NCBI GenBank assembly: GCA_963754925.1
Contig: CAVWHX010000004.1
Location: 555,883 to 619,882 of the forward strand
DNA from: an uncultured delta proteobacterium
GTDB taxonomy: Bacteria > Myxococcota > B64-G9
DNA: 64,000 bases
Direction of reading: 5' to 3'
The stretch's first letter is position 1. Each line of letters begins with the position of its first letter. Below the pieces are notes generated by a model. It was given only the letters and a program-made list of their open reading frames with translations. It ran no database searches and was not told where the DNA came from. Positions 25,629 through 44,500 of this stretch are shown piece after piece. Position numbers and translations under genes: made by a program.

Positions 25629-25867
25629 CGCGTACATATCGACCATAAAAATCTTCAATTGTCAAGTCAAGTAGTTACATAACCGACGAAAGGTTTCCAG
25701 GCCTCAGGAATTGGCTAGAGTAATCAAAAAGCCACACTATTGTCAAAAAACTGTGACAAAATACCACTGTCCTGATTCATTGTCTTCTTCCGAGGGGTAC
25801 CATGACGACCGTGTTGAGCGGATCAATTAACACCCATAGCACGTTCAGATTCTTTGTAGTCTTCTAA

Positions 25868-26001
25868 CCCCTTCTCGCTGCGCTTCGAGGGACAAGAGGT
25901 TGTAAGCCTCGCTTCACTCGGCAACAACCTCTAGCCCCTTCTCGCTGCGCTTCGAGGGACAAGAGGTTGTAAGCCTCGCTTCACTCGGCAACAACCTCTA
26001 G
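25868..26001 (-). repeat. two exact tandem 67-bp copies of the dumbbell mini-element
   Basis: ccccttctcgctgcgcttcgagggacaagaggttgtaagcctcgcttcactcggcaacaacctctag at 25868-25934 and 25935-26001. Confidence 0.9.
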
Positions 26002-27477
26002 CCAAACATGGGCTTCTTTCTGAAGCTGTGCTTCATCAAGGGGCATGTTTCTCAGCTCGCCTCGTCGACAAATTTGATCGTAGGTATTGGTGAGACAATC
26101 GCGGAACTTCAAGGTATCCTCGACAAAGGTTTTGCCCCAGCGAGTGCGATCGAGATTCGGGGACAATCCATGTACGAGCACCGCGTGGTAGTTTTCGAAT
26201 GGTTCTCCGTCACCGTACCGAAGCAGGTTATAGCTGGTCTGAAGGAAATACTCCGAGAATAGTTGCAAAATTTTCGGCACGTGCTGTTGCCTATTCGATA
26301 ACAGCTGGTTACGTTCAATCACCTCCGCAATCAAACGACGATAAATGCAGAGGTCTAGCCGCAGGCGGCTCGCCTGATTTTTATTGGCGAGAACGTGGTC
26401 GAAAAGTCGCGTTGCATCCACGTTCGATAGATAGACCTGAAGCAAGCGCCCCACGCAACCCTTGAGAAACTCATCAAGAATGGTGCGGCTTGATTCGATC
26501 GAACGCTCACGATCGCCAAACAATTTTGAACGCTGCAAGTCGATGGTCACCAGATGCTCGCCGAAGATCCGATTCAACTCAAGACGCAGATTCTCACTCA
26601 TGGAACCGACAACCTCGCTCAACGACGGGTTTCCGGCGGCAGATTTCTCGGATAGTAAACGCAAAAAACCGGTGAGGGTGGTGGCCTCGGACTTGAACAA
26701 CGTAAAAAGAATGAGCGAACGTCGCGACAGATGGCTTTTGCCCTTACGGGGAACATAGCGGAGGTAGTGCAGCAAGCGCAGCAACGCCAAGAATATCTTT
26801 TCGACGTAATGACGTTCCTGGTGGTTCAAAATTTGGCGGAGCGCATCGAGTATCTCGACAATGCGGATGCGATCGTATTCCGGGCGAAACTCAAGTAACA
26901 GCAGTGGGTTGAAGAACCGATTGAAGGCAATCTCGCGCGTTACTATCTGACCGAAGTGATAAAACAAGGGATAGGGACTATACTCTCGCTTGAGCAAGGC
27001 ATCGAGCACCTTCATCAGGTCGCGCAGACAGCGGTTAAGAAGAAACAAGCTCTCCTCGGGACGTTTTTGATCCAGGGAGTGACGCAGCAGCTGCAGGCGC
27101 ACATAGTCGGGAGCGACATGGTTTTCGATATAGCTTTGGAAGGCCAGTGAGCTTGCCAGGCCGCGATCGACCAATAATTGGGTTAACTGCGAGCAGCGGA
27201 CGAGCGCGCCGCGCAGCACTGCCAGCTCTTCAGAAAAGTCGCGCGTAATGGCGAGCTCGCGCTCGCCCAAAAACTGATTATGGAGGTTGAAGAAACAGCC
27301 AATTGCTCGTAGGTACATCTCTAGCTCGAAGAGGGTTTCTTCCTTACGTTTCATGGTGAGCTGACGAAACCAGGTCTGACGGTCGACCTGGTAGCCTTCC
27401 CGTTGCCACTTTGAGTCCTTAGCCAGCTCGAATAGTAAATCGCGCACAAAGGATTGATTGTCGGTGGGATGGTGCAT
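25981..27477 (-). CDS. hypothetical all-helical protein (498 aa)
   Basis: Long ORF with GAGGGGG RBS; no family recognised; last codons and stop lie inside the repeat. Confidence 0.75.
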   Translation of the reverse strand: MHHPTDNQSFVRDLLFELAKDSKWQREGYQVDRQTWFRQLTMKRKEETLFELEMYLRAIGCFFNLHNQFLGERELAITRDFSEELAVLRGALVRCSQLTQLLVDRGLASSLAFQSYIENHVAPDYVRLQLLRHSLDQKRPEESLFLLNRCLRDLMKVLDALLKREYSPYPLFYHFGQIVTREIAFNRFFNPLLLLEFRPEYDRIRIVEILDALRQILNHQERHYVEKIFLALLRLLHYLRYVPRKGKSHLSRRSLILFTLFKSEATTLTGFLRLLSEKSAAGNPSLSEVVGSMSENLRLELNRIFGEHLVTIDLQRSKLFGDRERSIESSRTILDEFLKGCVGRLLQVYLSNVDATRLFDHVLANKNQASRLRLDLCIYRRLIAEVIERNQLLSNRQQHVPKILQLFSEYFLQTSYNLLRYGDGEPFENYHAVLVHGLSPNLDRTRWGKTFVEDTLKFRDCLTNTYDQICRRGELRNMPLDEAQLQKEAHVWLEVVAE

Positions 27478-27573
27478 GGCAGATACCCCCTCGACACGAG
27501 GTTAGGGTAAACCCCACAACCGTATCTAAAATCTTATCGCAATCGCCGGGATAAGACCAGAAACAATCTCTAG

Positions 27574-27677
27574 TCCCCTGACGGGGATAAGAGACTGCCC
27601 ACAGGATAAGAGACTGTAACTCCCTTCGGTCGTAACAGTCTCTAATAACGCTCACTCCGTTCGCTAACAGTCTCTAA
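27574..27677 (-). repeat. nested dumbbell mini-elements (inner copy 27598-27645) at the ruvB stop
   Basis: Two ATAAGAGACTG and two CAGTCTCTAA arms with CCCC/GGGG and CTTCG-type loops. Confidence 0.8.
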
Positions 27678-28705
27678 AAGAGTGTCGGCTGTTGGCCGCA
27701 GAACTTAAGCCCCAAGTGCTCATACGCTTGGCGTGTCGCCACTCGACCGCGCGGGGTGCGCTGCAACAAGCCCTCCTGAAGCAAAAAGGGCTCGTAGACA
27801 TCCTCAAGCGTCTCGCTCTCTTCCGAAAGCGAAGCAGCAATGGCATCCACCCCGACCGGACCGCCGTCGAACTTCTCGATGATAGCGCGCAAGATGCGAT
27901 GATCCATTCGGTCGAGACCCAATCCATCCACTTCCAAGCGCGCCAGCGCATCCTGCGCTACCGTTAACGTCACCCGACCATCGGCAAGCACCTCGGCGAA
28001 GTCGCGCAGGCGGCGCAGCAGGCGGTTGGCGATGCGCGGGGTCCCGCGCGAACGTCGGGCGACTTCCAAAGCGGCATCTTCAGCCACCGCCACGTTCAGG
28101 ATGCGCGCGGAACGTCTCAAGATTTGGGCAAGTTCTTCCGCGGGGTAGAATTCAAGTCGGCAGATCACCCCGAAACGGTCGCGCATCGGCGATGAGAGTA
28201 ACGCCGTTCGGGTGGTCGCGCCTACCAGGGTAAAATGAGGGAGCTGCAGGCGCAGATTGCGTGCCGAGGGCCCTTCGCCGACCATATAATCAAAATGGAA
28301 GTCCTCCATGGCCGGGTACAGGCTCTCTTCCACCACGCTGGGGAGGCGGTGAATCTCGTCGATGAACAAGACATCGCGGTTCTTGAGATTGGTCAGGATT
28401 CCGGCCAGATCGCCCTTGCGTTCAATCGCCGGACCCGATGTGGTTACAATGTCAACCTGAAGCTCGCGGGCGATCACGGTCGCCAGGGTGGTTTTACCCA
28501 GGCCGGGCGGCCCGCAGAAGAGCACATGGTCGAGCGCTTCTTCACGCTTGCGTGCAGCCTCGACGAACACCTTCAAATTGTCGGTGATCTTGCACTGGCC
28601 GACATATTCGGCGAAACATTGCGGGCGTAGCGATTGCTCCAACGAGAGTTCGTCTGGCGTCGCTTCACTTGACAATGTGCGTACCTTATCTTTACGTGAA
28701 GCCAA
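27674..28705 (-). CDS. ruvB: Holliday junction branch migration helicase RuvB
   Basis: [51 protein letters not shown]...RTPRGR. Confidence 0.97.
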
Positions 28706-28764
28706 TGTCTAATCCCTCATAAGAAATTTTGGAGCCTTTAAGCTCACTATCTCTAACTGCCATT

Positions 28765-28851
28765 TCTCTAACCCCTGTCGCTTCGCTCCAGGGACAAGAG
28801 ATTCTTGCCGAGCAACGCGAGGCTTAGAATCTCTTACCCCTTTAGGGGTAA
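28765..28851. repeat. composite dumbbell mini-element
   Basis: tctctaacccctgtcgcttcgctccagggac-aagagattc-ttgccgagcaacgcgaggctta-gaatctctt-acccctttaggggt. Confidence 0.75.
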
Positions 28852-28875
28852 AAGCCCATTGTACCAAATCTCTAA

Positions 28876-28930
28876 TCCCCTTCGGGGATAAGAGCCTGTA
28901 ACGCTCGCTTCGCTCGCTAACAGGCTCTAA
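28876..28930 (-). repeat. dumbbell mini-element at the ruvA stop
   Basis: tccccttcgggga-taagagcctg-taacgctcgcttcgctcgctaa-caggctctaa, with ctctaa repeated just before the left end. Confidence 0.85.
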
Positions 28931-29520
28931 CTCCTCAGCAGGCGCAAGGCCTGCGGCAGCAACTGTTCGAGATTCGCGCCGTCAAGCGCCTGGTGTTGCA
29001 GAGACGAAAGCGTGCGTTCGACTTCGAGGCCCTTGAATCCAAGATTCGTAAGCGCGCTGCGTAGGTCATCAAGCGTCGTGGTAACGGCGCCGTCCGGTCC
29101 TTCGGAAGCCCGGGCAAGCGGCACGAGACGATCTTTGAGTTCGAGAATCATCCGCTCGGCTTTTTTCTTACCCACCCCGGGAACCAGGCAGAGCCGGCCG
29201 ACATCACCGGCACACACCGCTCCGGCCAGTTCGCGTGGTGCGATCCCGGAGAGCACCTGCAGCGCGGCCCGCGGGCCAAAACCGCTCATGCCGATCAAGG
29301 CCTCAAAGGCTGTTCGTTCATCGTGATCGAGAAAACCGAATAACTGGAGGGCATCCTCGCGGACATGGGTATGGATCCCAAGCGCTATGCGCTCGCCGAT
29401 GTTCGGCATCCCCTCGAGCGCCAGGGCTGACATAAACACGCGGTAGCCGACCCCGGCGACATCGAGCACCACATAGTCGGCCGCCCTGCTACATACAATT
29501 CCTTCGAGCCGCGCTATCAT
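28927..29520 (-). CDS. ruvA: Holliday junction DNA-binding protein RuvA
   Basis: MIARLEG, DVAGVGY, HTHVRED..LFGF, G.GPRAAL, VPGVGKKKAERMILELKD. Confidence 0.95.
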   Translation of the reverse strand: MIARLEGIVCSRAADYVVLDVAGVGYRVFMSALALEGMPNIGERIALGIHTHVREDALQLFGFLDHDERTAFEALIGMSGFGPRAALQVLSGIAPRELAGAVCAGDVGRLCLVPGVGKKKAERMILELKDRLVPLARASEGPDGAVTTTLDDLRSALTNLGFKGLEVERTLSSLQHQALDGANLEQLLPQALRLLRS

Positions 29521-30013
29521 TACGCCCCTTTTGCAAGACGATGCGAGCCTGAGCAGTACTGTCGTATAGATGGCATACGGCCACCGCCAACGCGTCCGAC
29601 GCGTCGAGCTCGGCCGGAAGCTCACCAAAAATGCCTCGAAGCACCGATTGAACCTGCACTTTCTCAGCGGCGCCGTAACCGGTTATTGCCTGTTTGATCC
29701 GCCGGCTCGGATACTCGTGCACCGGAATATTCGCCCGGCCTGCAGCCAACAGAATCACCCCGCGCGCATGGCCGAGCACCAACGCACTGTGGGCGTTAAC
29801 GCCGGTGAAAACCTCTTCGACCGCGATTTCTTCAGGTTGGTTCGCATCAATGACTTTTTCCAAGGAATTAAAAAGCCGCGCTAACCGCATCGATAACGGC
29901 CCCCGACCCGGCCGGATGACACCGCTCACTATCATGCTGGGCTTTTGTCCGCGGCCTTCCACCACACCGTAACCGGTGCAGGTTGAGCCAGGATCAATGC
30001 CCAAAATACGCAC
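29489..30013 (-). CDS. ruvC: crossover junction endodeoxyribonuclease RuvC
   Basis: ILGIDPGS..TGYG, AVEEVF, LGHARG, TGYGAAEK, DASDALAVAVCH. Confidence 0.95.
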   Translation of the reverse strand: MRILGIDPGSTCTGYGVVEGRGQKPSMIVSGVIRPGRGPLSMRLARLFNSLEKVIDANQPEEIAVEEVFTGVNAHSALVLGHARGVILLAAGRANIPVHEYPSRRIKQAITGYGAAEKVQVQSVLRGIFGELPAELDASDALAVAVCHLYDSTAQARIVLQKGRNDSAARRNCM

Positions 30014-30078
30014 GGAGCCCTCCTCAATCCGTTACCGAACCCAACCTATTGCAACGGGGCCGCCTCGCGAACTACTGG

Positions 30079-30822
30079 CTAACCGGCCGGCATGTCTGCC
30101 GGATCGATATCAAAGTTGGCGTAGACGTTTTGAACATCGTCGTGATCCTCAAGCTCGCTGGCGAGCCGCAACACCTGCTCGGCTTCCTTGCCGGTCACCT
30201 TGACCGTATTCTGTGGGATTTTATCGAGTTTAGCTGACTCGATCTTCAGGCCCGCCTTTTCCAACTTTTCTTTAACCGCTTGCAGTTTGTTCGGCTCGCA
30301 GGTTACCTGGAAGTTTTCTTCTTCCTCCTGGATATCGTCGGCGCCAGCATCTAAAGCGATGTCCATTAGCTTATCTTCGGTCAGGCCCGCCTTGGAGAGT
30401 AGTATCAACCCCTTGGCGACGAACATCCAACCTACGCAACCAACCTCGCCAAGATTGCCGCCACATCGAGAGAACATCTTGCGGAATTCGCCCGTCGTGC
30501 GGTTTTTATTGTCGGTGATTACCTCCACCAGGATGGCCACGCCACCTGGTCCATAACCCTCGTACGTGCCTTCTTCGTATGAAACCCCTTCGAGCTCTCC
30601 GGTCCCCTTTTTGATGGCGCGATCGATGTTGGTCGCCGGCATATTGTTGGCCTTGGCTTCAGTAACAGCGGCCCGTAAGCGTGGATTGCCATCCACACTG
30701 CCGCCACCGGAACGCGCCGCGATACTAATTTCCTTGATGAGGCGGGTGAAGATCCGACCGCGCTTCGCGTCGGCGGCACCCTTCTTGTGCTTGATCGTTG
30801 CCCACTTTGAATGCCCGGACAT
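30079..30822 (-). CDS. yebC: YebC/PmpR family protein
   Basis: [43 protein letters not shown]. Confidence 0.96.
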
Positions 30823-31055
30823 GCGACCTCCTTAATCATCAACCTTTCAGATACCGATATCGCAGCGTACCCTGTATCGATCGTTACTCAACGGATTGTT
30901 CGGTTATCATACTTCTTTTTGGATTTCAAGTGGATCTTCCAGGTCTTGCACTTTCAGAGGCTTCCTGTCATATATAAAGCCAAACTGGTGACCGGTATTC
31001 GTTCGCACGTTACGTTATTTCAGTACCATGCTATGAGGACCGTTGAGGTGATTCA

Positions 31056-33320
31056 TTGAGTCAGATCGATCTCAGTCGTCTGCGGGCACAAACGGATCAA
31101 ACTCGTCAAGCGGCGCAAGAAATCGGGCAACGGCTAACCAACGAGTGTATTCATTTGTGCAGCATGGTTAACTGTGGCGCCGAGGATCCCCTGTTAAGCA
31201 CGCTGCTTAGCGGTCCGCTCGCCGAACTGGTGCGCAAAACCGGCTGGAACTCCCTGATCATCAATCCAGGCTCTACCTCAACCAAGGTGGCGGTATATAA
31301 CGGCCTGAATCTTCATGCCAAAGCCGAGGTGCCGCTTGCGGCCGGCGGTCCCGATGGCATCGAGGAGCGGGTCGCCACCATCACGAACTGGTTTAGGGAA
31401 AACGGCTTGGTATTCGCCGAGCTCAGCGGGATTGCGGCGCGCGGCGGTTTTGTTGCGCCGGTGCCGAGCGGGACCTACCGCGTCACAAAACGCATGGTTG
31501 AAGATCTCGGCAGGGCTTATTACCAACATGCCTCCAACATGGCCGTGCCCATTGCGCTGCGCCTTGGTGAATTAGTTAGTAAAGAGGTGACCATTACCGT
31601 CACTGACCCGGTCACCGTCGATGAGCTGGCCACGGTGTACCGCATCACGGGTTCGCCGGCTATCCGCAATGATGGTGTGGCGGTCCACTACCTCAACCAT
31701 CGCGCAGTAGCCGCGCTGGCCGCGCATATCCTGGGAGTCGAGCCGGATAGGCTGCACCTGGTCACCGCTCATCTGGGTGGCGGGATGTCGGCTGTCCGCC
31801 ATTCCGACGGACGGATGCTGCAGGTCTCCGCCGCCTTCGGCGGTATGCCTTCGGCCAATCGTTCAGGAGCATTGCCGCTGCACCAGGTCATCCGACTCAT
31901 GGAGCAGAAAGAATACACCCTCGATGCTCTGAAACGCGACGTGATGTCATCGGGAGGTCTGCTCGGCCTGGCGGGCACCACCGATTTCAAGGCTCTTTTT
32001 GCATTTCGCAGCCAGCGTGCAACCAACCAACAACGTCAAAAGATCGACCTATTGATCGAGTTTTACGCTAACCGAGTGGCAGGCGCGATCGCCGAGGTGT
32101 CGGCCGCCCCGCGGCCGTTGGATCTGGTGCTGCTTACCGGTGGTTTAGCGCATGATGAACATTTTTGCCAGATGGTCGCCGACCGGATTATGCAGCCGGT
32201 TCCGGTCGTGCGATTGCCCGGTTCGGTGGAGCAGCAAGCTCTCGCTGCCGGGCTGCTGCGCGCCTGCGCCGATCCCGGAAGCTTAGAAGATTATTCCCGA
32301 GCACGCGATACTCTTGCCGCGTTCCGCCACGAGGAAGACCTGGTGTTGGCGGTTTCGATCTTCACCTCGCCGCCTATCAAACCAGTCGATCCCATGCCGA
32401 CCCGCCTCGACGAGATCGTCAAACGGGCTGCTGCCAGCGGACCGCCGCCCGTCATCGCACTGGTCGGGGCGGACAACGAGGAGGCCTTGCTCGCGGCGCG
32501 GCTCGCCAACATCGAGGACCAACCGCCGCTGGTTCGTTTTCTGCTCCTGGGCCCATATGGTCGCGTTTCCCAGCTCGCCTGGGAACTGGATGTTTCAATC
32601 GATGGCGAGAATTACATTTTGGTGGATACCGCCGATCCAGCCGCCACGGCAGTCGAGCTCCTCAAGAACGGCCTCGCCGATACCCTGATGAAGGGCAACC
32701 TCCACACCGCCCAGTTGCTGAAGGCGTATCTGACATTTCTCAAAGGCCTTGGCAGCGCCAAGACACGGCTCAGCCACCTCGGCCTCTTTGAGATTCCCGG
32801 CCGACCTAAGTTGGTGTGTCTCACCGACGCCGCGATGAACACCTACCCAGATGTGGAGGCCCGTATCGAGATCCTTGAAAACGCCTTGTTAGCGCTGCGG
32901 CACCTTGGCTATCAGTGTCCCAAGGTCGCGGTCATTTCGGCGGTCGAGAAAGCTTCTCTGGCAGTCAGTTCATCCATGGATGCCAAGGAAATCGCCGACC
33001 ACCTCAAGGATCGCTTTGATCTGATCATCGAGGGGCCGCTGTCGGTGGATATCGCCCTCTCACCAGAATCAGCCAAGGAAAAATCGTACCCGGGTAGGAT
33101 CCAGGGTGACGCCGACGTGTTGCTGGTGCCGAACATTGACACCGGCAATGCTATCTACAAAGCCTTCACGGTGACCTCGGGCGCTGCGACCGCCGGGACC
33201 ATTATCGGCGGTCCCTGTCCGCTGATTCTCACGTCGCGCGGGGACAGCTCGCGCAGCAAACTGGCCTCTATAGCTTTGGCGGTATTGCTCATCAAGAAGA
33301 TGAAAGGCGGCGTGGCATGA
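31056..33320 (+). CDS. butyrate kinase - phosphate butyryltransferase fusion
   Basis: Buk half: IINPGSTSTKVAVY, ARGG, SGTY.V, HASN, DPVTVDEL, HLGGG.S, LTGGLAH. Ptb half: LMKGNLHT, TDAAMN..P, IEGPLSVDIA, DVLLVPNIDTGN, LILTSRGDS. Confidence 0.85.
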   Translation: MSQIDLSRLRAQTDQTRQAAQEIGQRLTNECIHLCSMVNCGAEDPLLSTLLSGPLAELVRKTGWNSLIINPGSTSTKVAVYNGLNLHAKAEVPLAAGGPDGIEERVATITNWFRENGLVFAELSGIAARGGFVAPVPSGTYRVTKRMVEDLGRAYYQHASNMAVPIALRLGELVSKEVTITVTDPVTVDELATVYRITGSPAIRNDGVAVHYLNHRAVAALAAHILGVEPDRLHLVTAHLGGGMSAVRHSDGRMLQVSAAFGGMPSANRSGALPLHQVIRLMEQKEYTLDALKRDVMSSGGLLGLAGTTDFKALFAFRSQRATNQQRQKIDLLIEFYANRVAGAIAEVSAAPRPLDLVLLTGGLAHDEHFCQMVADRIMQPVPVVRLPGSVEQQALAAGLLRACADPGSLEDYSRARDTLAAFRHEEDLVLAVSIFTSPPIKPVDPMPTRLDEIVKRAAASGPPPVIALVGADNEEALLAARLANIEDQPPLVRFLLLGPYGRVSQLAWELDVSIDGENYILVDTADPAATAVELLKNGLADTLMKGNLHTAQLLKAYLTFLKGLGSAKTRLSHLGLFEIPGRPKLVCLTDAAMNTYPDVEARIEILENALLALRHLGYQCPKVAVISAVEKASLAVSSSMDAKEIADHLKDRFDLIIEGPLSVDIALSPESAKEKSYPGRIQGDADVLLVPNIDTGNAIYKAFTVTSGAATAGTIIGGPCPLILTSRGDSSRSKLASIALAVLLIKKMKGGVA

Positions 33321-35131
33321 CTAATCGTGATCAGCTGTTGGGGCTATCAAGCCTGGCCCCGCCCCCCGGCTTGCGCAAGGCGGGCCACTTTCAGAGTGTT
33401 GAAGAGTACGATGCGTTTTTACGGCAGACCTATCTCAATCCGGATGACTATTGGCATACGGTAGCTAAGGAGATCACCTGGATTAAGCAACCGCACGGGC
33501 TGGGCGGCCCCGGTAATTGGTTTCCCGACGGACAGCTCAACCTCTGCGATAATTGCCTCGATGTGCCGCTCACGCGCGGGCTTGCAAGTACCCTGCTGGA
33601 GGTAACCTGGGAAGACGCATCAACAGATTATCCAACCTGGCCACTATCGAAAATCCAGAATGGCGTCGCACGACTTTGCGCCGAGCTTGGCTCGTTCAAT
33701 CTGCCGGCGGGAGATCGGGTTTTGCTGGCCCTTTCCCCCGGGTTGGAACTGGTCCTCGCAACGCTGGCTAGCCTGCGGTTGGGGCTTGTCTGTGTGCCCT
33801 TCGATCCGGCAGTCGGTCCGACGAGGCTGGCTCGCCGGGCGACGGCGGCACACTGCCGGGCGATCGTCATGAGCGGAAGCTCGATCGGCGTTAACGAAAT
33901 CATACAGGAGTCGAAAACCTGGGATGCGCTCCACCGATTGGTGCTCGAGCCAGGGTGGGATAATGGGCCACCGTGCGCGTTACCACAACCGGTGCCGGTC
34001 CCCGCCATGCACCCCAGTTTTCTGCTTGCCGACTCGGCCGGTACCCTGTATGCATTACCGTCAGCGGGTTTTTTGATCCAGGCGCTGTCGGCCTGCCGTG
34101 CCGTTCTGGATAATCGAGGCAGCGACGACCGGTATTGGCTTCAAACGCCGGCCCATTACACCTGTTTGCAGGCTTCTGTGCTCGGCTTATTGTCGTGCGG
34201 TAGTACGGTGGCGCTGGCTTCAGCATTGGCCACGCCAACACCTGATGAACTACTCAAGGCTCTGTCAATCGTACGTCCGCGGGTAGCACTCATTCAAGCG
34301 CGGGATCTACAACGGATGCTCAAACCCTATCAGACCAGTGAACGAACCTATCGTCAGCCAGGACCCGAACTCTTCATATTGGAAGGCGAGACCGTCGAGC
34401 CGAGCTTTTATCGGTATCTCCGTACGGTGGTTTTTGACGGCAACACCCATATAGTGCAGGTCCTTTCGCGGGTAGAAGGCGGCGGCTATCTGGCTGGACC
34501 GTGCCCAACGGTTACGCCGGTCCGGCCCGCCTCAGTATCGTTGCCCCTGCCGGGGATAGACCTTACGGTGGTTGACGATCACGACGAGGAGTGCCACGTT
34601 AACCATGGTGGTTTCTTGGCGTTGCGACAGATGACACCGGGAATACCCCTCGAATTACAGCGAACAAAGCTCCCCGTGCGTCTGGGCGTGCGCTGTCGTC
34701 GCGATGCGGCGGGTTACCTGTGGACCATGGGCGAGGCACCTATCGAACGACCCGAGGGCCAAACGGTGACCGCCTCCGAACTTGAAGCCGTGATTGCGAA
34801 CCTTTCGGGGGTTGAACAGGTGGTGGTGGTCCGCTATGAAGATACGCAGGGTGTCTGGCGCACGCATGCGTTTATTAAACTTGTCGAGGGAGAAGCGGCA
34901 CTTGCCAGAATCAAGCAGGAGCTTGCACAGAAAGTGGGTGCAGAATCTGTCCCGGAGAGTTTTCAGGTGGTCAGCCAGCTGCCCTATAGTCGCAGCGGAA
35001 AATTACTCCGTAGTGTGTTGCGGCGGATTGCGCTGGGGGAGATCGATGGACTGAGCGATTTGGAGGCGGTGACGGATCCCGAACTAGTGCAGAATCTGAT
35101 CTCAAGCGTGAAGCGAAACGCTTCCCAATAG
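33317..35131 (+). CDS. acetyl-CoA synthetase-like (ANL fold) protein with degenerate adenylation motifs
   Basis: Acs N-terminus (PDDYW..AKEITW, WFPDGQLNLCDNCLD) and C-terminal LPYSRSGKLLR retained; P-loop YTSGxTGxPKG and GRxDD not present. Confidence 0.7.
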   Translation: MTNRDQLLGLSSLAPPPGLRKAGHFQSVEEYDAFLRQTYLNPDDYWHTVAKEITWIKQPHGLGGPGNWFPDGQLNLCDNCLDVPLTRGLASTLLEVTWEDASTDYPTWPLSKIQNGVARLCAELGSFNLPAGDRVLLALSPGLELVLATLASLRLGLVCVPFDPAVGPTRLARRATAAHCRAIVMSGSSIGVNEIIQESKTWDALHRLVLEPGWDNGPPCALPQPVPVPAMHPSFLLADSAGTLYALPSAGFLIQALSACRAVLDNRGSDDRYWLQTPAHYTCLQASVLGLLSCGSTVALASALATPTPDELLKALSIVRPRVALIQARDLQRMLKPYQTSERTYRQPGPELFILEGETVEPSFYRYLRTVVFDGNTHIVQVLSRVEGGGYLAGPCPTVTPVRPASVSLPLPGIDLTVVDDHDEECHVNHGGFLALRQMTPGIPLELQRTKLPVRLGVRCRRDAAGYLWTMGEAPIERPEGQTVTASELEAVIANLSGVEQVVVVRYEDTQGVWRTHAFIKLVEGEAALARIKQELAQKVGAESVPESFQVVSQLPYSRSGKLLRSVLRRIALGEIDGLSDLEAVTDPELVQNLISSVKRNASQ

Positions 35132-35133
35132 GT

Positions 35134-37248: not shown

Positions 37249-39125
37249 GCGAGACTCGTAAACCCAGTTATGATCCGCAGTGGCAGGAGAAGTATCGTGA
37301 TATGCTTGCCACACCCGAGCAAGCAGTGCAAAAAATCCGTCCCGGCCAGCGCGTTTTCATCGGCACCGGTTGCGCCCAACCGCAAGAACTTGTGCGGGCG
37401 CTCACCGCTCGTTCGATCGAGCTGACCGATACACAAATAGTGCACCTGCTGACGCTCGGCGATGCGCCCTACGCCCACAAGGAGCTTACCCACAATTTCT
37501 CCGTGAACAGTTTCTTCATTGCCGATAATGTCCGTGACGTTATCCAAGAAGGCCTGGGAGACTACACGCCGATTTTTCTCTCGGACATTCCGCGTCTGTT
37601 CGCTTCGGGCCAGTTGCCGCTTGATGCCGCCTTGATACAGGTCTCCCCGCCCGACGAGCGCGGATGGTGCAGCCTGGGAATCTCGGTCGACATCGTCAAG
37701 AGCGCGGCGGAAAACGCCGCGTTGGTTATCGCGCAGGTCAACCCCCAGATGCCCCGCACCCTGGGCGATAGTCTGCTCAATATCCAGGATTTTGATCTGT
37801 GTGTGCCGGTTGATCTGCCGCTGCTCGAAGCCAGGCCGGCCGTACCCGACGAGGTCTCGCGTCAGATTGCCATTCATGTCGCCAGTCTGATCGAAAATGG
37901 GGCCACGTTGGAGCTCGGTATCGGCCGCATCCCCCACAGTGTCTTGGAGTATCTGAAAGACCGAAAAGATCTGGGCATCCACACCGAGATGCTCTCCGAT
38001 CCCATCATTGACCTGATCGAATCCGGGGCGGTTACCGGGGCCCATAAATCGGTTGACCGCGGCAAGATCGTGGCCAGCTTTTGCCTGGGCACCCGCAAAC
38101 TCTACGATTACATCGACAATAACCCGCTCTTTTCCTTTCATCCGACCGAATATGTCAACGATTCTTTCTTGATCGGCCAGCAACATAAGATGGTGGCGGT
38201 CAACATGGCCCTTGAAATCGATCTCACCGGCCAGGTGTGCGCCGACTCGCTGGGCAGCAAGTTCTTTTCCGGAATCGGCGGGCAGGTGGACTTCAATAGA
38301 GGTGCGGCCCGCTCGGAAGGCGGCAAACCCATCGTCGCCCTTCCGTCCACCGCGAAAGGCGGCACTATCTCTCGAATCGTATGCCAGCTCAGCCCCGGCG
38401 CCGGGGTGGTGACCACCCGCGGCAGCGTGCACTATGTGGTGACGGAATACGGCGTGGCGTATCTCCATGGCAAGAACGTTCAGGAGCGCGCGCTTGCCTT
38501 GATCAGTATCGCTCACCCGGATTTTCGCGCCGAGCTGCTCAAGCGGGCGATCGAGGCCAAGTACCTGCGCCCCGAACTTTCCGACATCGAGGATCGCATT
38601 TGGGTTGGGCCGCCGGAACTCCGCACAACGTATTTGCTCGACAACGGTACGCAGATCAATTTCAGGCCGATTCATCCCACCGACGAACCGGCGATGAAGG
38701 ACTTGTTCTACGCTCTTTCACGCGAGTCGATCTACCGCCGTTTCATGGCTCACCTCAAACGGGTCTCGCACAAGCAGGTTAAGAATTTCGTCTATGTCGA
38801 CCACCGCACCGAGGTGTCAATCGTGGGCACCGTGCCCGAGGCGTACGGCGAGGAGATCATCGTGGTCGGCGGCTACTACCTCGATCCCAAGACCAATCGC
38901 GCCGAGGTGGCTTTCACCGTGCGCGACGACTGGCAAAACAAAGGGATTGGTTCGTTCCTGCTGCGTTACTTAATCACCATCGCGCGGAGCAACGGCATCG
39001 CCGGTTTTACTGCCGAGGTGCTGCGCGAGAACAGGCCCATGCAAGCGGTATTCAACAAAAGTCCCTGCAAGGTCAAAAGCTTCCTCACCAGCGACGTCTA
39101 TAGCTTTGAGCTGGAGTTCGCATAG
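37245..39125 (+). CDS. acetyl-CoA hydrolase/4-hydroxybutyrate CoA-transferase fused to a C-terminal GNAT acetyltransferase
   Basis: VSPPDERG, LELGIG.IP, catalytic GIHTEM, SGIGGQVDF; GNAT part RPIHPTD, AEVAFTVRDDWQNKGIG, VLRENRPM. Confidence 0.9.
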   Translation: MSETRKPSYDPQWQEKYRDMLATPEQAVQKIRPGQRVFIGTGCAQPQELVRALTARSIELTDTQIVHLLTLGDAPYAHKELTHNFSVNSFFIADNVRDVIQEGLGDYTPIFLSDIPRLFASGQLPLDAALIQVSPPDERGWCSLGISVDIVKSAAENAALVIAQVNPQMPRTLGDSLLNIQDFDLCVPVDLPLLEARPAVPDEVSRQIAIHVASLIENGATLELGIGRIPHSVLEYLKDRKDLGIHTEMLSDPIIDLIESGAVTGAHKSVDRGKIVASFCLGTRKLYDYIDNNPLFSFHPTEYVNDSFLIGQQHKMVAVNMALEIDLTGQVCADSLGSKFFSGIGGQVDFNRGAARSEGGKPIVALPSTAKGGTISRIVCQLSPGAGVVTTRGSVHYVVTEYGVAYLHGKNVQERALALISIAHPDFRAELLKRAIEAKYLRPELSDIEDRIWVGPPELRTTYLLDNGTQINFRPIHPTDEPAMKDLFYALSRESIYRRFMAHLKRVSHKQVKNFVYVDHRTEVSIVGTVPEAYGEEIIVVGGYYLDPKTNRAEVAFTVRDDWQNKGIGSFLLRYLITIARSNGIAGFTAEVLRENRPMQAVFNKSPCKVKSFLTSDVYSFELEFA

Positions 39126-39205
39126 TCTTGGCGTTTAGGTTCACTCTCAGGCCGGTTCTCTTGAGGCTATAAGAAACGTATCTGAAAAATATTACTCTGA
39201 ACAAG

Positions 39206-39934
39206 TCACTTCGACGTTCCGAAATTTCTATGTCGCCATCGTACCTTGATCACATCAAGAAACATTTTCGGAGGATCTCTAAAAACTCTGACTTTAGAGC
39301 GTTCGTCATTGAGCCATACAACGGGCACTTCTGCAACGTTTAGTCCGAGTTTACGAGCCAATAGCAACACTTCAACATCAAATGCAAAACCGTCCACCGT
39401 AGACCTTTCAAAGATGGATCGAGCGGCATCTCGGCGATATAACTTGAACCCACATTGTGTATCCAGGTAGCCAGGTACACCACTGAGACGAGCCAGCACG
39501 TTGAAGAACCGCCCCATCAGCACACGGTACCAAGGCTGTCGGCGGGCTATGTTGGCTCCCTCAATAGAGCGAGATCCGATGACAACAGGAGCCTGTTCCG
39601 TGGCGGCAAGCAGTTTTTCAACGTCTTGGATAGGTGTTGACAAGTCAACATCCGAACAAAGAATCCATTCCAGCTTCGCGGCCAGAACACCCTGGCGGGT
39701 GGCGGCTCCTTTGCCTCGGTTCTGCGGCAGCTTAATCAACCTAAGAAGAGGCCACCGTTGCGTCATTGCGAATACGATTTTTGCTGTGTTGTCTTTACTC
39801 CCGTCGTCAACTACGATAACTTCATAATCCGGAACGTTAGCTATACAATACTCACGCGTGCGATTAAGTGATTTTTCAATCCGTTCTTCTTCATTAAACG
39901 CTGGAAAGACGATCGATAGCGGTACTTTCTTCAT
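39206..39934 (-). CDS. family 2 glycosyltransferase (Dol-P-glucose synthase-like)
   Basis: SIVFPAFNEE, VVDDGSKD, NRGKG, SDVDLS, DTQCGFK, FAFDVE. Confidence 0.9.
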   Translation of the reverse strand: MKKVPLSIVFPAFNEEERIEKSLNRTREYCIANVPDYEVIVVDDGSKDNTAKIVFAMTQRWPLLRLIKLPQNRGKGAATRQGVLAAKLEWILCSDVDLSTPIQDVEKLLAATEQAPVVIGSRSIEGANIARRQPWYRVLMGRFFNVLARLSGVPGYLDTQCGFKLYRRDAARSIFERSTVDGFAFDVEVLLLARKLGLNVAEVPVVWLNDERSKVRVFRDPPKMFLDVIKVRWRHRNFGTSK

Positions 39935-40004
39935 ATAATTCGGATAGCAGAGAAACTTTTTTCCAGCAACTCTTTCGAGCAAAGAAAATATCGTGCGGTA
40001 TTTT

Positions 40005-40895
40005 CTAAAAGAAGCGTTTCAAGAGATTCCAGGCAATCGCCACCAGTGAACCGCCAAGGATATTTTTATCATGGCCCATCTCTGACTCCGTCATCAAGAT
40101 TGTTTCCCCATGGCTCAGGTAACGTTTAGACTCAAGCAAACGGACTTCTTCTTCAAGAGCCCGTTTTTCCTTGAGGGCTGCTTTCTGAAGCCCGCCGTCT
40201 GAGATGAATGTCAGGATCCTATTCAACTCGTCAGCATCAAACCAAGTTCCGTGTTCCCGGCAAATATCGACCACCACGCCCGAGTAACGGCCGAAGTTTT
40301 GGCGATTCATGATCGTATTGCACATGGGGCATCGAATATACCCCTGCGTGGGTACCTTATCCTTGAATTGGTTTGCTGCGGTTGCCGTCTTGTCCTGATT
40401 CACTGCCTTCGGCCGAGGAGCGGTCATCTGCGTGATGGCGACCGCCTGATCTCTATCCCGGTATATCTTTTCTAATGTTTCACGATCCACCCACATACCT
40501 TCACATTGTGCGCAGCGCTCAAGCGGATTACTTCCAACCACCTCGACCTGCAACAGCTGGTCTTTGCAGCGCGGGCAGGCATGCTGAGTTTGGCTTCCGT
40601 GGACAATCAGCCTACCGGCAAGCGCTTCTCCGCAATGGGGGCAATACGCTACCCCTGCAAAGGTCGCCCCGAAGCAATTGGGGCACAGGCCGGTAGCCAG
40701 CCGTGTGTCGCAAAAAGAACATCGGCCTGCGATCGGATCAACCGGTGCCCCACACGCCGGACAGTTTATTTTGCCCGCTTCAGTTGGGCCCGCAGGCACG
40801 AGAATCGTGAGTCCACACGGGCAACGAATGGTTTCGCCGGGGGAAGCCGCCCCAGAATCGATATGTCGCTTGCAGCGAGTACAAACGATAATCAT
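40005..40895 (-). CDS. multi-zinc-ribbon protein with two zf-TFIIB-like domains
   Basis: Numerous CxxC pairs; CPRC...ERCAQCEGMWVD and CPMC...DICREHGTWFDADEL. Confidence 0.75.
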   Translation of the reverse strand: MIIVCTRCKRHIDSGAASPGETIRCPCGLTILVPAGPTEAGKINCPACGAPVDPIAGRCSFCDTRLATGLCPNCFGATFAGVAYCPHCGEALAGRLIVHGSQTQHACPRCKDQLLQVEVVGSNPLERCAQCEGMWVDRETLEKIYRDRDQAVAITQMTAPRPKAVNQDKTATAANQFKDKVPTQGYIRCPMCNTIMNRQNFGRYSGVVVDICREHGTWFDADELNRILTFISDGGLQKAALKEKRALEEEVRLLESKRYLSHGETILMTESEMGHDKNILGGSLVAIAWNLLKRFF

Positions 40896-41109
40896 GTCGA
40901 TAGATCCTGTCCTCAATCTCCCCTACCATTGATACTACAAAAGCGAGTTGATTTTCCAGATAATCGCCGCCTAACGATCCGCAGGTGATATTAAAAAAGC
41001 TCGACTTGGGATTTAAATTAGGGTAGGCAGCGTTTCACGGTTTGTGAGGGAACTGAACCTATAGGATTATTAAGTTCTGGGCCAACCATTTTGAGAAAGG
41101 AGACACCGT

Positions 41110-41343
41110 ATGGATCAACATACCGGTGAGCTCAAACGAAAAGTTAGAGACTCTTACGAACGAAGTGAGTTAGAGTCTCTTATCCCCTTGGGGGTCAGAG
41201 ACTCCGACGACGAGGATGACGATGAGTTTGATGATGAAGACCTCGATGAAGAGGACGAAGAATATGAGGATGAAGATGAAGATTTCGATGAAGAGGACGA
41301 GGATTACGATGATGAAGATGAAGATTTCGATGAAGACGCATGA
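41110..41343 (+). CDS. small extremely acidic protein carrying an in-frame mini-element
   Basis: GAAAGGAG RBS; D/E-rich tail; 51-bp element at 41144-41194 in frame. Confidence 0.65.
   Translation: MDQHTGELKRKVRDSYERSELESLIPLGVRDSDDEDDDEFDDEDLDEEDEEYEDEDEDFDEEDEDYDDEDEDFDEDA
41144..41194 (+). repeat. dumbbell mini-element (51 bp), intragenic and in frame
   Basis: ttagagactc-ttacgaacgaagtgagtta-gagtctctta-tccccttggggg, followed by the target tcagagactc. Confidence 0.88.
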
Positions 41344-41345
41344 GT

Positions 41346-41391
41346 CCTAGGGTTGAAACCCGAGGCTATACCCCCTCGCTGCTGCGCAGCT
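41346..41391. repeat. REP-like palindrome
   Basis: cctagggttgaaacccgaggcta followed by gctgctgcgcagc, between convergent genes; only one copy in the window. Confidence 0.4.
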
Positions 41392-41458
41392 AACCCATAG
41401 CTGACACCGATACAAACAGGATAGGTTTCCTGTTCTAAACGCTGCGAACCAGCGAAGG

Positions 41459-41509
41459 TTAGAGACTCTTACGAACGACGTGAGTTAGAGTCTCTTATCC
41501 CTGAGGGGG
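41459..41509 (+). repeat. dumbbell mini-element overlapping the mutM stop
   Basis: ttagagactc-ttacgaacgacgtgagtta-gagtctctta-tccctgaggggg, nearly identical to the 41144 copy. Confidence 0.88.
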
Positions 41510-42343
41510 AATAGAGCTTGTGGGTTCAACCCCAGGAACTTGGCAGCGTGGACAAATACGGGTACCGCGCTGGGCCACTCGAAAATAAACAATCGCCGTT
41601 TTGCAACGCCGGCATGGTTGACCCTCATGGCCGTAGACGCGTAGGGACTGCTGCATACGGCCGCCGGGATAGACCTCATCAAAGGAGGTACCGTTGTTTT
41701 GGATGGCCTCTCGCAACACGTGTACGATAGCTCGGCGCAAGGAGCGGATGGCCGTATCGCTCAGTCGATCCGTGCGCTCAAGGGGGTGCAGTCGTGCACG
41801 AAACAACGCCTCGTCAGTATAGATATTTCCGAGGCCAGCGATGAGTGTTTGATCGAGCAGAAGGGGCTTTAGTTTTCGCGCGCTTTTCGAAAACAACGCC
41901 CGGAGCGCCGATACGGTAAAGGTAGGTCCCAGCGGTTCAAGACCGAGTCTCCGATCCAGTTCGTTCATAGTTGGAATCAGCTCGATGCGTCCAAACTTGC
42001 GCGCGTCGCAAAACAGCAGACGCCCGCCCCGGTCAAACTCCCAGAAAGCGCGGAGGTGCTCCGGCTCTTCGGTAGCGGCGCTCTCCCAGAGGATGCGACC
42101 ACTCATGCGCAGATGAACCGCCAAGACGCCGATAGACCGGTTTCGTCCGCCCAGGTGGAACACAATCCACTTCCCCCGCCGAGTGACCTGAGTAATCGTA
42201 GCCCCTTGGAGGGCGCGCTGAACCACGGTGATGTTCGGCTTTATTTGGCGTTTCCAGCTAGCGCGAAAGCGACGAATGGTACGTCCGACTACTCGCGTGC
42301 GCAGGTCGCGGGTGATGATTTCAACTTCGGGGAGTTCAGGCAT
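41495..42343 (-). CDS. mutM: formamidopyrimidine-DNA glycosylase
   Basis: MPELPEVE, RRGK, HLRMSG, DARKFG, LLDQ..IAGLGNIY.DE, zinc finger CRRC...CPRC. Confidence 0.96.
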   Translation of the reverse strand: MPELPEVEIITRDLRTRVVGRTIRRFRASWKRQIKPNITVVQRALQGATITQVTRRGKWIVFHLGGRNRSIGVLAVHLRMSGRILWESAATEEPEHLRAFWEFDRGGRLLFCDARKFGRIELIPTMNELDRRLGLEPLGPTFTVSALRALFSKSARKLKPLLLDQTLIAGLGNIYTDEALFRARLHPLERTDRLSDTAIRSLRRAIVHVLREAIQNNGTSFDEVYPGGRMQQSLRVYGHEGQPCRRCKTAIVYFRVAQRGTRICPRCQVPGVEPTSSIPPQG

Positions 42344-42370
42344 ACAACCTTCGAAGCTGGGTCGGGGCGC

Positions 42371-42757
42371 TTAGGTCTTCCCGTCTTTGCGGGCCCGGGA
42401 TAGGTTGCGGTCAACAATTTGCTCGATAAGTTGCATCGAGTTTTGATCGAAATTAACGAACTCAACACCCATCCCGCATGAACCTTTGTTTTTCCCATCC
42501 GGATCGGGGCGATTAACACGCACCACCTTACCCAGGCCCTCGATGAGCTTGGAGCCGTCCTTAAGATAAAATTGTAAATATATGAGGGTACCCTCTTCGC
42601 GAATCTCCTCAGTGCGGATGAACATACCGCCGATGCTGATGTCGGTCGAGTACTCTGCTAAAAAGTCATCGAGGGTGTCGAAGCGGTACTGGATCAACAA
42701 CGATAGCGGCACACGCTGGTAGCGGCGGCGCTCTGAACTGTCGCCTTTTTTTCCCAT
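42371..42757 (-). CDS. PilZ-domain protein (TIGR02266 myxobacterial type)
   Basis: ERRRYQRVP, DISIGGMFIRT, GKVVRVN, GMGVEF. Confidence 0.85.
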   Translation of the reverse strand: MGKKGDSSERRRYQRVPLSLLIQYRFDTLDDFLAEYSTDISIGGMFIRTEEIREEGTLIYLQFYLKDGSKLIEGLGKVVRVNRPDPDGKNKGSCGMGVEFVNFDQNSMQLIEQIVDRNLSRARKDGKT

Positions 42758-42952
42758 GGGGCCTCCCAACTTCATTTTTCCACATGACGTTTCCTATCAT
42801 AGAACACCCTCGTCGTATTGGTCAAGTTGCGGAAGGCTTGTGTGCCGACGATTGACAAGCGGAACGTCGAAGGATAGGTTGCGTTCTTGTTTGACCCTTG
42901 ACGTCATAGTGAAGAGTGGTTGGCCGATTGCACTGAAGTAGGAGGACTATCG

Positions 42953-43900
42953 ATGCCAGGCATTGGAATTGTTTGCAATCCAAATGCAGGAAAGCACAAC
43001 TCCTACAGAAAGCAACTCGGCGAGCGCCTGGCCTCGTGCGTCGGTGCCAACGGGACCGTGCGCGAGACCAGCTCGGTGGATGAGATCGACCAGGTTGCCA
43101 AGGACTTTTTGTCCAACAACATCGACATCCTCGGCATTAGCGGCGGAGATGGGTCTAATCATTTCACCCTCTCCACGTTTATCAAGGTCTATAACGACGC
43201 GCCGCTGCCAAAAGTGGCTTTTTTATGCGGCGGGACGCATAACGCCCACGCCGCTTCGATCGGCATTCGCGGCACTCCCGAAAAATTGCTTGAGAATATT
43301 GCGGGTAAATACCATGACGGTGAATCGTTTGAACTCATCCACCGAAATATTTTGCGAGTCAACGACGGCAGCGCGGTTCGGTATGGTTTCACGCTGGCGA
43401 CCGGCTTCATGCACCGCTTTATGGAAGACCTCGTCGTACACCAGGGCGATTCGGTCGTTAAAACCGCCCGGAAGTTATCTTCCTGGATCGGCTCATGGAT
43501 AATCCATGGCGAAAAGATTCGAAAAGCCTTTGAGCCTCAGCCTGCCCGGGTGATCGTTGACCATCAATGCTTGGCGTGGGAGCGCATCAACGGCATCTCC
43601 GCTTCGGCCATGGAACGGCTAGGGCTCGGCTTCACCCCCTACCTTCGCGCCGGCGACAAACCCGGCTACTTTCCCTTCAGCGTCATGCGCGTCTCACCGA
43701 GCACGTTTGTTACAAAACTGATGTGGGACTACAAAAAAAGCAGGATTCCTACCCACCCCGATCAAATCAATGATATATGCACTTCAATACTCCTGGAGGC
43801 GCAATCACCGGTGGGGTACGTCCTTGATGGAGAGATCTACAGCGGTTCACCCCGCATAGAGGTCACCACCGGGCCAGGCTTTGATTTGATAGTCCGGTAA
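42953..43900 (+). CDS. diacylglycerol/lipid kinase family protein
   Basis: IVCNPNAGK, GGDGS, GGTHN, VLDGE; AGGAGG RBS. Confidence 0.8.
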   Translation: MPGIGIVCNPNAGKHNSYRKQLGERLASCVGANGTVRETSSVDEIDQVAKDFLSNNIDILGISGGDGSNHFTLSTFIKVYNDAPLPKVAFLCGGTHNAHAASIGIRGTPEKLLENIAGKYHDGESFELIHRNILRVNDGSAVRYGFTLATGFMHRFMEDLVVHQGDSVVKTARKLSSWIGSWIIHGEKIRKAFEPQPARVIVDHQCLAWERINGISASAMERLGLGFTPYLRAGDKPGYFPFSVMRVSPSTFVTKLMWDYKKSRIPTHPDQINDICTSILLEAQSPVGYVLDGEIYSGSPRIEVTTGPGFDLIVR

Positions 43901-43947
43901 CGAAAGAAGCAATTGCAGCATTGCCTATGTGTTGTCATCCCCGCGAA

Positions 43948-43998
43948 CCCCTAAAGGGATAAGAGACGGTATCTCCCTTCGGTCGTAACAGTCTCTAA
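43948..43998 (-). repeat. dumbbell mini-element (51 bp) nested in a GTCAT...ATGAC palindrome
   Basis: cccctaaaggga-taagagacgg-tatctcccttcggtcgtaa-cagtctctaa. Confidence 0.8.
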
Positions 43999-44489: not shown

Positions 44490-44500
44490 AATTGACTCCT

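Follow-up and report, generated by a model that had tools for sequence, protein, structure and literature searches.

A genome-wide family of structure-conserved 48-67-nt repeats, mobile or precisely excisable, in an uncultured delta proteobacterium

Results

Copies of the dumbbell element in the window

The window analyzed here is a 64,000-nt stretch of the genome of an uncultured delta proteobacterium (GenBank assembly GCA_963754925.1; source genome G000), located at G000:C4:555883-619882, and the subject of this study is a short repeat in it, the dumbbell element, which consists of a long hairpin followed by a second, short hairpin. A sequence-only reading of the window had listed about nine copies, and all nine sites were confirmed as element copies by sequence inspection. 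A covariance model built from 28 copies gave eight strong matches in the window (61-80 bits, E 1e-17 to 4e-13), all within 25,868-43,998, and no match elsewhere in the 64 kb; the ninth copy is a split parent (27574-27597/27646-27677). The list itself was corrected at two places: the sites at 27574 and 27598 are one element nested in another, and what lies at 28765 is a tail fragment, directly next to a full copy on the other strand (28795-28848). The copies are given below with strand and the evidence for each.

25868..25934, minus strand: full copy 1 of a tandem pair, 67 nt (covariance model, 69.9 bits); the minus strand reads CTAGAG-GTTG-TTG-apical hairpin-TTA-CAAC-CTCTTG, then a long tail hairpin
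25935..26001, minus strand: second full copy of that pair, with 67 nt and 99% identity to copy 1 (covariance model); belongs to window repeat family D9
27574..27677 (27574-27597 + 27646-27677), minus strand: parent copy with core ACTG, split by a nested copy (sequence and X1 contig)
27598..27645, minus strand: nested copy, 48 nt (covariance model, 61.3 bits), reading TTAGAG-ACTG-TTA-CGACCGAAGGGAG-TTA-CAGT-CTCTTA-TCCTGTGGG and sitting between the parent's inner TTA and the parent's 3' core
28766..28794, minus strand: tail fragment, CTCTAA plus the hairpin CCCCTG..CAGGGA with a GAGCGAAGCGA motif (weak covariance-model match at 28783-28836, 22 bits); abuts the next copy head to head
28795..28848, plus strand: full copy with core ATTC, CAAGAG...CTCTTA-CCCCTTTAGGGG (covariance model, 65.1 bits)
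28876..28930, minus strand: full copy with core CCTG between ruvB and ruvA, followed by TTAGAG on its own strand (covariance model, 80 bits, the best in the window)
41144..41194, plus strand: full copy with core ACTC, in frame in an acidic open reading frame (ORF) at 41110-41343 and followed by TCAGAGACTC (covariance model, 73.2 bits)
41459..41509, plus strand: full copy with core ACTC, just 3' of the fpg gene (covariance model, 69.3 bits)
43948..43998, minus strand: full copy with one core mismatch, ACTG/CCGT (covariance model, 67 bits)

The gene gaps holding window copies are lpxC/unknown gene, unknown gene/ruvB, ruvB/ruvA and zinc-ribbon gene/fpg, and the gap of the 43948 copy lies between a diacylglycerol-kinase-like gene and an unannotated ORF at 44073-44489, which is followed from 44501 on by an ATP-synthase subunit gene. 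The 43948 copy has CCGT where CAGT is expected and ATA where TTA is expected, and is located inside another palindromic repeat (GTCATTCTCGCG...GCGGGGATGAC). It is the sole copy listed with a core mismatch, as the sequence-only reading had stated, and the five cores named there are correct (GAG followed by ACTC, ACTG, CCTG, GTTG or ATTC). The pairing of the proposed 7-bp core also stands, but GAG is invariant and the variable part is 4 nt; likewise, the T.T mismatch described for the TTA/TTA boxes is common but not invariant, since TAAGAG pairs A-T and CTAGAG...CTCTTG covary. The DNA fold of the 28876 copy was calculated at -14.9 kcal/mol (z -4.4).

The ORF at 41110-41343 (plus strand) encodes a small, very acidic product of 77 aa with D/E-rich 12-nt periodic repeats, and the 41144 copy lies in frame in it. 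In a related strain (X2 contig), the 65 letters of 41143-41207, which are this copy with some bases on its flanks, have given way to a different run of 23, and the frame is kept. In-frame palindromic insertions are known from Rickettsia, and the case of this ORF resembles them.

Genome-wide occurrence and conserved structure

The family is not confined to the nine window copies but forms a genome-wide, structure-conserved, intergenic repeat. A strict pattern gave 73 matches in the 4.0-Mb genome versus 0 for the reversed control, looser regular expressions gave 140-189 copies, and the covariance model gave at least 152 matches at E <= 0.01, which is a lower bound because scoring covered 150 of the 1641 first-look candidates. 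The unit is 48-67 nt long and, on the folding (top) strand, is composed of T[TA]AGAG, a 4-nt core, TTA, an apical hairpin of 13-16 nt, TTA, the complementary core and CTCTTA, after which a short hairpin, T-CC(CC)-loop-GG(GG)-[A/G], makes up the 3' end. The foot is T[TA]AG, CTAG or CAAG in all 140-189 copies. No Rfam family was matched: the whole window gave no match at the gathering score, and a search over 25800-29000 with E up to 5 returned just two chance-level matches, located elsewhere.

The analysis of core pairing, in which no complementarity filter was used, showed that the 4-nt core is perfectly complementary in 147 of 189 copies and has one mismatch in another 23. The cores fall into 13 types, and identical apical sequences combine with 4-6 different cores. 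Shuffling of core partners (2000 shuffles) gave perfect pairing in a mean of 21.7 and a maximum of 36 copies versus the 147 observed, indicating that the core is kept as pairing and bearing out the earlier view that structure rather than sequence is conserved. In alignment A1, 98.7% of the cells were paired versus 84.5% after shuffling, with the four core pairs biased because 20 rows from outside the window had been pre-chosen for complementary cores. Two apical pairs that were not pre-filtered covary in this alignment (GC14/AU11/CG2 and GC10/CG8, each with 0 unpaired), and the outermost pair covaries too, from T-A to C-G.

The apical hairpin has the form C-GA-NC-GNA-GN'-GA-G, in which a 2-bp helix with a GNA triloop is stacked on tandem G.A pairs; its apex is CGACCGAAGGGAG or one of the covarying variants CGAGCGAAGCGAG and CGAACGAAGTGAG. 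GNA loops and tandem G.A pairs are unusually stable in single-stranded DNA. Tandem-GA hairpins number 177 in the genome versus 21 for the AG..AG control and are strand-specific, and the apical motif also caps other repeat families of the genome and the loop of some second hairpins.

Gain and loss of exact units

Contigs from four metagenomes of different studies were aligned to window positions 25000-44500, and empty sites were found at the predicted ends in contigs of near-identical strains. A 566-nt X1 contig, with 1 and 2 mismatches on its two sides, joins 25867 to 26002, so that exactly both tandem 67-nt units (134 nt) are missing, and an X2 contig makes the same joint. This empty allele reads ...TGTTTGG^TTAGAAGAC (top-strand reading) and keeps TTAGAA, indicating that the target pre-exists insertion. 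A 362-nt X1 contig and an X3 contig join 27597 to 27646 and lack exactly the 48-nt nested unit; the joint has no shared letters (both=0) and no flanking repeat, and the X1 contig without the nested unit carries the uninterrupted parent restored. An X2 contig has the same 48-nt unit twice. The unit gained or lost extends from T[TA]AGAG through the last G/A of the second hairpin. The 134 nt and 48 nt missing from strain contigs have exactly the predicted ends, so the element is mobile or can be excised precisely, in agreement with the idea of ORF-less mini-elements that move or excise as exact units, and we are highly confident that it constitutes a mobile repeat family.

Filled and empty sites with the same element ends were also found within the genome, in other repeat families such as X and Y'. 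Sites of the form GTCATTTCGAGCG^TAGCGAGAAATC are empty at 3 places and filled at at least 8, and those of the form ..GGCGTGCGG^CTTGGCTGG occur both empty and filled. The region upstream of a Y1 pseudogene is filled and that upstream of the intact Y1 gene is empty. Copies sit directly 5' of TTAGAR, in the loops of other palindromic repeats, or inside their own copies, the last including a triple nest at C4:1417800-1417935; a five-unit tandem array lies at C3:25692-25961. The possibility that the core is copied from the target was considered and dropped, as nested copies often, not always, share the parent core (CTTG in CCCG, ATTG in GCTG).

Two extra palindromic families were observed that are insertion sites for the dumbbell element. 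The first, GTCATTTCGAGCG.AGCGAGAAATC...GATATCTCCCTTCGGTCGATATGAC, forms inverted doublets of tandem-GA hairpins, about 14 in number, and the second consists of GTCA[TC][TC]CCCGCG...GCGGGAATCCAG doublets with about 78 arms; examples lie at G000:C3 near 276,700 and at C6:20291-20420, and one arm is at window 43999-44030.

The preferred target is ^TTAGAR. A [TC]TAGA[GA] sequence follows at offset 0-1 after 40 of 140 copies versus 0.08 expected, and a looser form after 52 of 140 versus 1.3 expected, confirming the TTAGAG-like target that had been noted after most window copies.

No filled/empty pair has a target duplication or terminal inverted repeats, so the earlier exclusion of MITEs (miniature inverted-repeat transposable elements) holds, as does that of CRISPR arrays, because copies are dispersed and neighboring units of a tandem array have no spacer between them. 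A conventional MITE that a DDE transposase moves is a highly improbable explanation: the genome does hold an active-looking IS3-like insertion sequence in at least 20 copies at 98.7-100% identity, and the AGAG-core and core'-CTCT arms look like inverted repeats, yet the arms are not at both termini, the 3' end being the second hairpin, target-site duplication is missing from all the pairs, and the arm sequence varies with its pairing kept, unlike a DDE-bound terminal repeat.

It is also quite improbable that no dedicated enzyme is involved and that units come and go by replication slippage, hairpin bypass or recombination between palindromic repeats. Palindromes are deletion-prone, the nested unit has a copy number of 0, 1 or 2 among strains, and the 134-nt deletion, with its 2-nt microhomology and the TCTAA/TCTAG repeats beside it, could be explained by slippage. 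The 48-nt indel has no flanking repeat, however, and the direct repeats available there would remove 19 or 32 nt; moreover, an identical unit with identical ends is found at unrelated sites (families X and Y', a gene upstream region and virgin intergenic DNA), and about 150 dispersed copies have invariant ends.

Genomic location and orientation

Although the genome is 85% coding, 153 of 170 copies lie outside crude ORFs. Between co-directional genes the folding strand is the sense strand in 53 cases versus antisense in 29 (p=0.011); the neighbors are convergent genes for 42 copies and divergent genes for 29.

This location bears on an alternative that we consider rather unlikely, namely that the element is chiefly a structured RNA or cis-regulatory DNA (a 3'-end stabilizer, terminator or protein-binding site) and its spread secondary. 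The intergenic position, often between co-directional housekeeping genes, the sense bias and the strongly conserved structure would fit such a role. The orientation bias is nevertheless weak for an RNA element, given the copies between convergent and divergent genes, and there is neither a U-tract nor an Rfam match. Presence/absence polymorphism, nesting and tandem arrays are traits of DNA mobility, and absence from all 17 family relatives (see below) argues against a conserved regulator.

Distribution among genomes

The element was found in 0 of 30 relatives, including 17 of the same family, and in 0 of 400 other genomes from the same phylum. A scan of one genome per species gave at least 58 stretches, most of those listed coming from metagenome-assembled genomes (MAGs) titled Planctomycetota bacterium. 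Planctomycetota MAGs with the element include Yes70-35, MAG219 and H41-bin223_1, and their dominant core is CCAG. Around one such MAG (G031), the element is present in 7 of 41 genomes, all of them nearest neighbors with genomes of 1.3-2.7 Mb; this sample and the one from the phylum of G000 have no genome in common. The distribution across lineages is thus patchy and transfer-like.

A Pseudomonadales pair of matches was set aside, as it belongs to a duplicated stretch of 5.7 kb, perhaps an rRNA operon, where short ORFs overlap in large number, and its core is non-complementary; the other scattered matches were single and mostly chance-like, about 6 chance matches being expected by our arithmetic. 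In the Yes70-35 MAG (L001, L012), head-to-tail arrays have the core CCAG in common and differ in their apices (GACCGAAGGTC versus GACTCCCGATTTATCGGGA), and superficially look like repeats with 10-17-nt 'spacers'. A Desulfovibrionaceae MAG (L069-L071) carries three look-alikes, TTAGAG-core-TTAGCGACG..GC-TTA-core'-CTCTTATCC, all three lying within larger palindromes of the form AAGAACCCTTTT...AAAAGGGTTCTT; they may represent a distant branch of the family.

Candidate mobilizing enzymes

The window holds no enzyme gene, as the sequence-only reading had it, and the genome has no autonomous copy; a search for arms 90-6000 nt apart with matching cores gave coincidental pairs of separate copies only. 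Six genes are flanked by copies on both sides and none of them is transposase-like. A 498-aa unknown protein encoded between window copies was also rejected, having no Pfam or NCBIfam match and no match in five element-bearing MAGs.

PF01797 matched one gene in G000, on C6, which encodes a 313-aa IS200-like Y1 protein. A second candidate, a gene for a REP-associated tyrosine transposase (RAYT; REP, repetitive extragenic palindromic sequence), lies at C1:112498-113091 on the minus strand and has the motifs NHFHGII and YITDNP. It is flanked on both sides by GTAG-type REPs, and a further one is inserted in frame between its HUH motif and its Y motif; this insertion is probably why PF01797 (E<=0.001) missed the gene. 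About 100 nt past its downstream REP there is a nested TTAGAG copy. The GTAG-type REP, GTAGGGGC, occurs 102 times in the genome and is separate from the dumbbell family. In the Planctomycetota MAGs, the repeats on either side of RAYT-like genes are different from the element, and these genes were rejected. No class 3 HUH-Y1 gene was found in G000 with PF01797, four RAYT queries and an HUH..Y motif scan, none of which used a class 3 protein as query and which together returned just the C6 Y1 and the C1 RAYT, and the IS110, TnpB and reverse transcriptase families gave 0 matches each in this 94% complete genome.

PF00589 gave two matches in G000, which are XerC (358 bits) and XerD (366 bits), and these are by sequence inspection also the sole tyrosine recombinases of the Planctomycetota MAGs; the genome has no integron integrase, the integron model remaining below its cut-off. 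Mobilization by a tyrosine recombinase had been one of the earlier proposals. In the form considered here, an integron-attC-like or Xer-type exchange, the recombinase would swap one strand at [G/A]^TTA, and the right half of the element with the downstream TTAGAG would fold as core'-CTCTTA / hairpin / TTAGAG-core. IntI exchanges at G^TTRRRY and cuts after RYYYAA, and XerCD acts on the folded CTX-phage site. An attC site is likewise an imperfect hairpin with an unpaired spacer, a variable apex and its features on one strand. The unit has TTAGAG (TTRRRR) at its start, G/A at its end and ^TTAGAR as its target; the [G/A]^TT junction is confirmed by the empty sites, and both the [G/A]^TTAGAG junction and the target resemble G^TT. 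The cut on the other strand falls after YTCTAA. At 41144, the 3' flank TCAGAGACTC complements GAGTCTCTTA, the tandem arrays look like ORF-less cassettes, and XerC and XerD are encoded by G000 and by Planctomycetota MAGs alike. The R''/R' boxes, however, fit only partly ((N)TTAGAG fits TTRRR and ends in R; CTCTAA fits YYYAA and starts with C) and no IntI gene is present. Copies are single, dispersed genome-wide and intergenic, with no array beside an integrase; Xer works at dif and not at about 150 sites, and nested targets lack TTA on their 3' side. We judge this exchange to be unlikely.

The IS3-like insertion sequence mentioned above was compared over 454 terminal bases (e.g., G000:C6:165900-166355); one copy lies directly after the stop codon of the IS200-like Y1 gene, and its end region has a hairpin with GAAGGGAG and CGACCGAAG. 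In the window, 49700-57900 (minus strand) contains three large paralogous ORFs of 809, 506 and 709 aa (crude ORF call) with many internal repeats of about 168 nt, and the ORFs share blocks of 60-80% identity (repeat families D1-D14).

Discussion

Likeness to known hairpin repeats

According to Table S1 of Quentin et al. (2018; PMC6006769), hairpins of the form ..GCCG-CGACCGTAAGGGAG-CGG.. occur beside class 3 HUH-Y1 genes of Legionella, Solibacter and Planctomyces, and the same source places class 3 TnpA-Y1 mainly in Planctomycetes, Acidobacteria and Proteobacteria. The class 3 hairpins listed there and the dumbbell element have in common a high copy number and the apical motif C-GA-CC-G(N)NA-GG-GA-G with tandem G.A mismatches, CGACCGTAAGGGAG (Legionella, Solibacter) corresponding to CGACCGAAGGGAG here. 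The class 3 hairpins of that table have a GC stem (GCCG..CGG), a CnGA foot and a 4-nt loop, whereas the element has a 3-nt loop, TTA flanks rather than CnGA, an AGAG-core stem and a second hairpin. The apical motif in common is the strongest pointer to an HUH enzyme. A class 3 pattern search in the genomes around G031 stayed at the control level. Metagenomes yielded at least 122 stretches with a class 3-type hairpin, GAGCCGCGACCGTNAGGGAGCGG, in many cases as two inverted copies separated by 10-40 nt, with no recurrent or Y1-like neighbor gene in the 80 loci examined (L125-L204), and no HUH gene adjoins a tandem-GA cluster at C11:81.7-82.1 kb.

REPs and their doublets (REPINs) mobilized by RAYTs are likewise described (PMC6006769, PMC3116915, PMC3733652) as short, abundant, intergenic, palindromic and non-autonomous repeats with single-strand hairpins and mismatches, sometimes in frame in genes, used as targets by other insertions, and lineage-specific. 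They differ in being 20-40-nt hairpins or inverted doublets with a GT[AG]G or CGTC foot, in contrast to the two-hairpin dumbbell of 48-67 nt with its TTAG(AG) foot; self-nesting and direct tandem arrays also set the element apart. In a REPtron, a single-copy RAYT gene is flanked by its cognate repeats; the RAYT gene of G000 is flanked by its own GTAG REPs and is not co-distributed with the dumbbell family. The claim that the element stands outside all described REP families must be weakened, for its apical hairpin has the same motif as class 3 HUH-Y1 REP-like hairpins. Literature searched on REP, RAYT and Planctomycetes and on small nested repeats returned known REP work only, and the signature strings of the element were found in none of the papers of the collection searched.

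The elements related to IS200/IS605 offer a further comparison. Their miniatures (palindrome-associated transposable elements, PATEs) likewise have no terminal inverted repeats, make no target duplication and carry hairpins at both ends, and the dumbbell element, read on the other strand, is likewise inserted 3' of a short sequence, YTCTAA, identical with its own 3' end. No matching full-length insertion sequence exists in the genome, however, the single IS200-like Y1 gene has other ends, no replication-strand bias is seen, and a fixed target fails, TTAGAR following 40-52 of 140 copies (about a third). The small dispersed repeats (SDRs) of the cyanobacterium Nostoc punctiforme, reportedly described by Elhai et al. 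in 2008, are said to be very small hairpin repeats of 21-27 nt with compensatory changes, which insert into their own copies and other repeats and show evidence of mobility, their enzyme reportedly never having been identified. Compared with SDRs so described, the dumbbell element is longer (48-67 nt), with two hairpins, other sequences, the TTAGAR target and empty-site alleles from wild populations. Overall, the element resembles REPs/REPINs, class 3 hairpins and the SDRs as reportedly described, but its foot differs from that of the first two.

Proposed mechanism

We tentatively propose, with confidence just short of even, that the element is a non-autonomous, REP-like miniature mobile DNA moved in trans by cutting at [G/A]^TTAGAG on a folded single strand, with an HUH-Y1 enzyme as the likeliest agent. 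One strand (5'-T[TA]AGAG...) would fold into a long hairpin with an invariant AGAG/CTCT foot and a free but paired 4-nt core, the core being flanked by two TTA/TTA boxes that usually contain a T.T mismatch, and the short CC..GG hairpin would follow on the 3' side. A trans-acting site-specific enzyme may then cut and rejoin at [G/A]^TTAGAG on the folded single strand. The protein would take hold of the invariant boxes and the apical hairpin, and core covariation would be explained because the core would need only to pair. Since each copy starts with TTAGAG, it would create a new target at its own 5' edge, and tandem arrays would arise because insertion 5' of an existing copy reuses its TTAGAG start. 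The enzyme is most likely of the HUH-Y1 type (RAYT- or class 3-like), given that hairpins with this apical motif have been published from the neighborhood of class 3 HUH-Y1 genes.

Several observations weigh against this proposal. No cognate enzyme was identified in the genome, which is 94% complete, so that an enzyme encoded in the missing part is possible. Homologues of the C6 Y1 protein (40-61% identity) are multi-copy in 16 of 17 family relatives without the element, where they lie on insertion sequence-like units of 1.25-1.35 kb with unrelated end hairpins, and this Y1 was therefore rejected as the cognate enzyme; in the Y1-rich relatives the apical motif occurs at chance numbers. Homologues of the C1 RAYT (46-60%) occur in 9 of 17 relatives without the element and partly in Planctomycetota MAGs. 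Neither the IS200-like Y1 gene nor the RAYT gene is co-distributed with the element. The 5' foot is TTAG and not GT[AG]G or CnGA. Targets are not uniform: copies with a short tail (TCC-NNN-GG[GA]) occupy TTA^core' of a parent or ^C.. of another palindrome, and G^TAGCGAG or GCGG^CTTGG is the site of other copies. The 134-nt deletion, as stated above, is open to slippage.

Folding of a single strand, which the sequence-only reading had also supposed, is suggested by the strand-asymmetric motifs. Top and bottom strands do not differ in folding energy under a nearest-neighbor DNA model, which gives no credit to GNA loops or G.A pairs, and because the energies are the same for both strands it is the motif that carries the asymmetry. 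IS608-type single-strand transposition has a strong lagging-strand bias. By GC skew, the folding strand is on the G-rich strand in 75 cases versus 59 on the other (p=0.19), and a replication-strand bias of the IS608 type is not seen. These two results count against the proposal as well.

A further reading, which we regard as doubtful, is that the element is a self-folding unit of about 50 nt of an undescribed kind. Its internal TAAGAG/CTCTTA box would act both as part of the stem and as a guide pairing with TTAGAR, so that the unit would home both to its 5' edge and into its stem. An enzyme family new to transposition, or else host XerCD on folded single strands, would move it, and it would have crossed between distant lineages.

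Meaning of the family

Mobile DNA this small without coding capacity is, to our knowledge, rarely reported. The family provides a clean handle on such DNA, with exact ends from natural empty alleles, a defined preferred target, a protein-sized invariant base set around a freely covarying stem, and an apex in common with a poorly understood HUH class. What moves REP-like micro-elements, and on which strand, could become directly testable with oligonucleotides. For the host, about 150 nested and tandem copies break assemblies, give rise to indels that separate strains in the gaps of housekeeping genes, and can insert peptides in frame into proteins.

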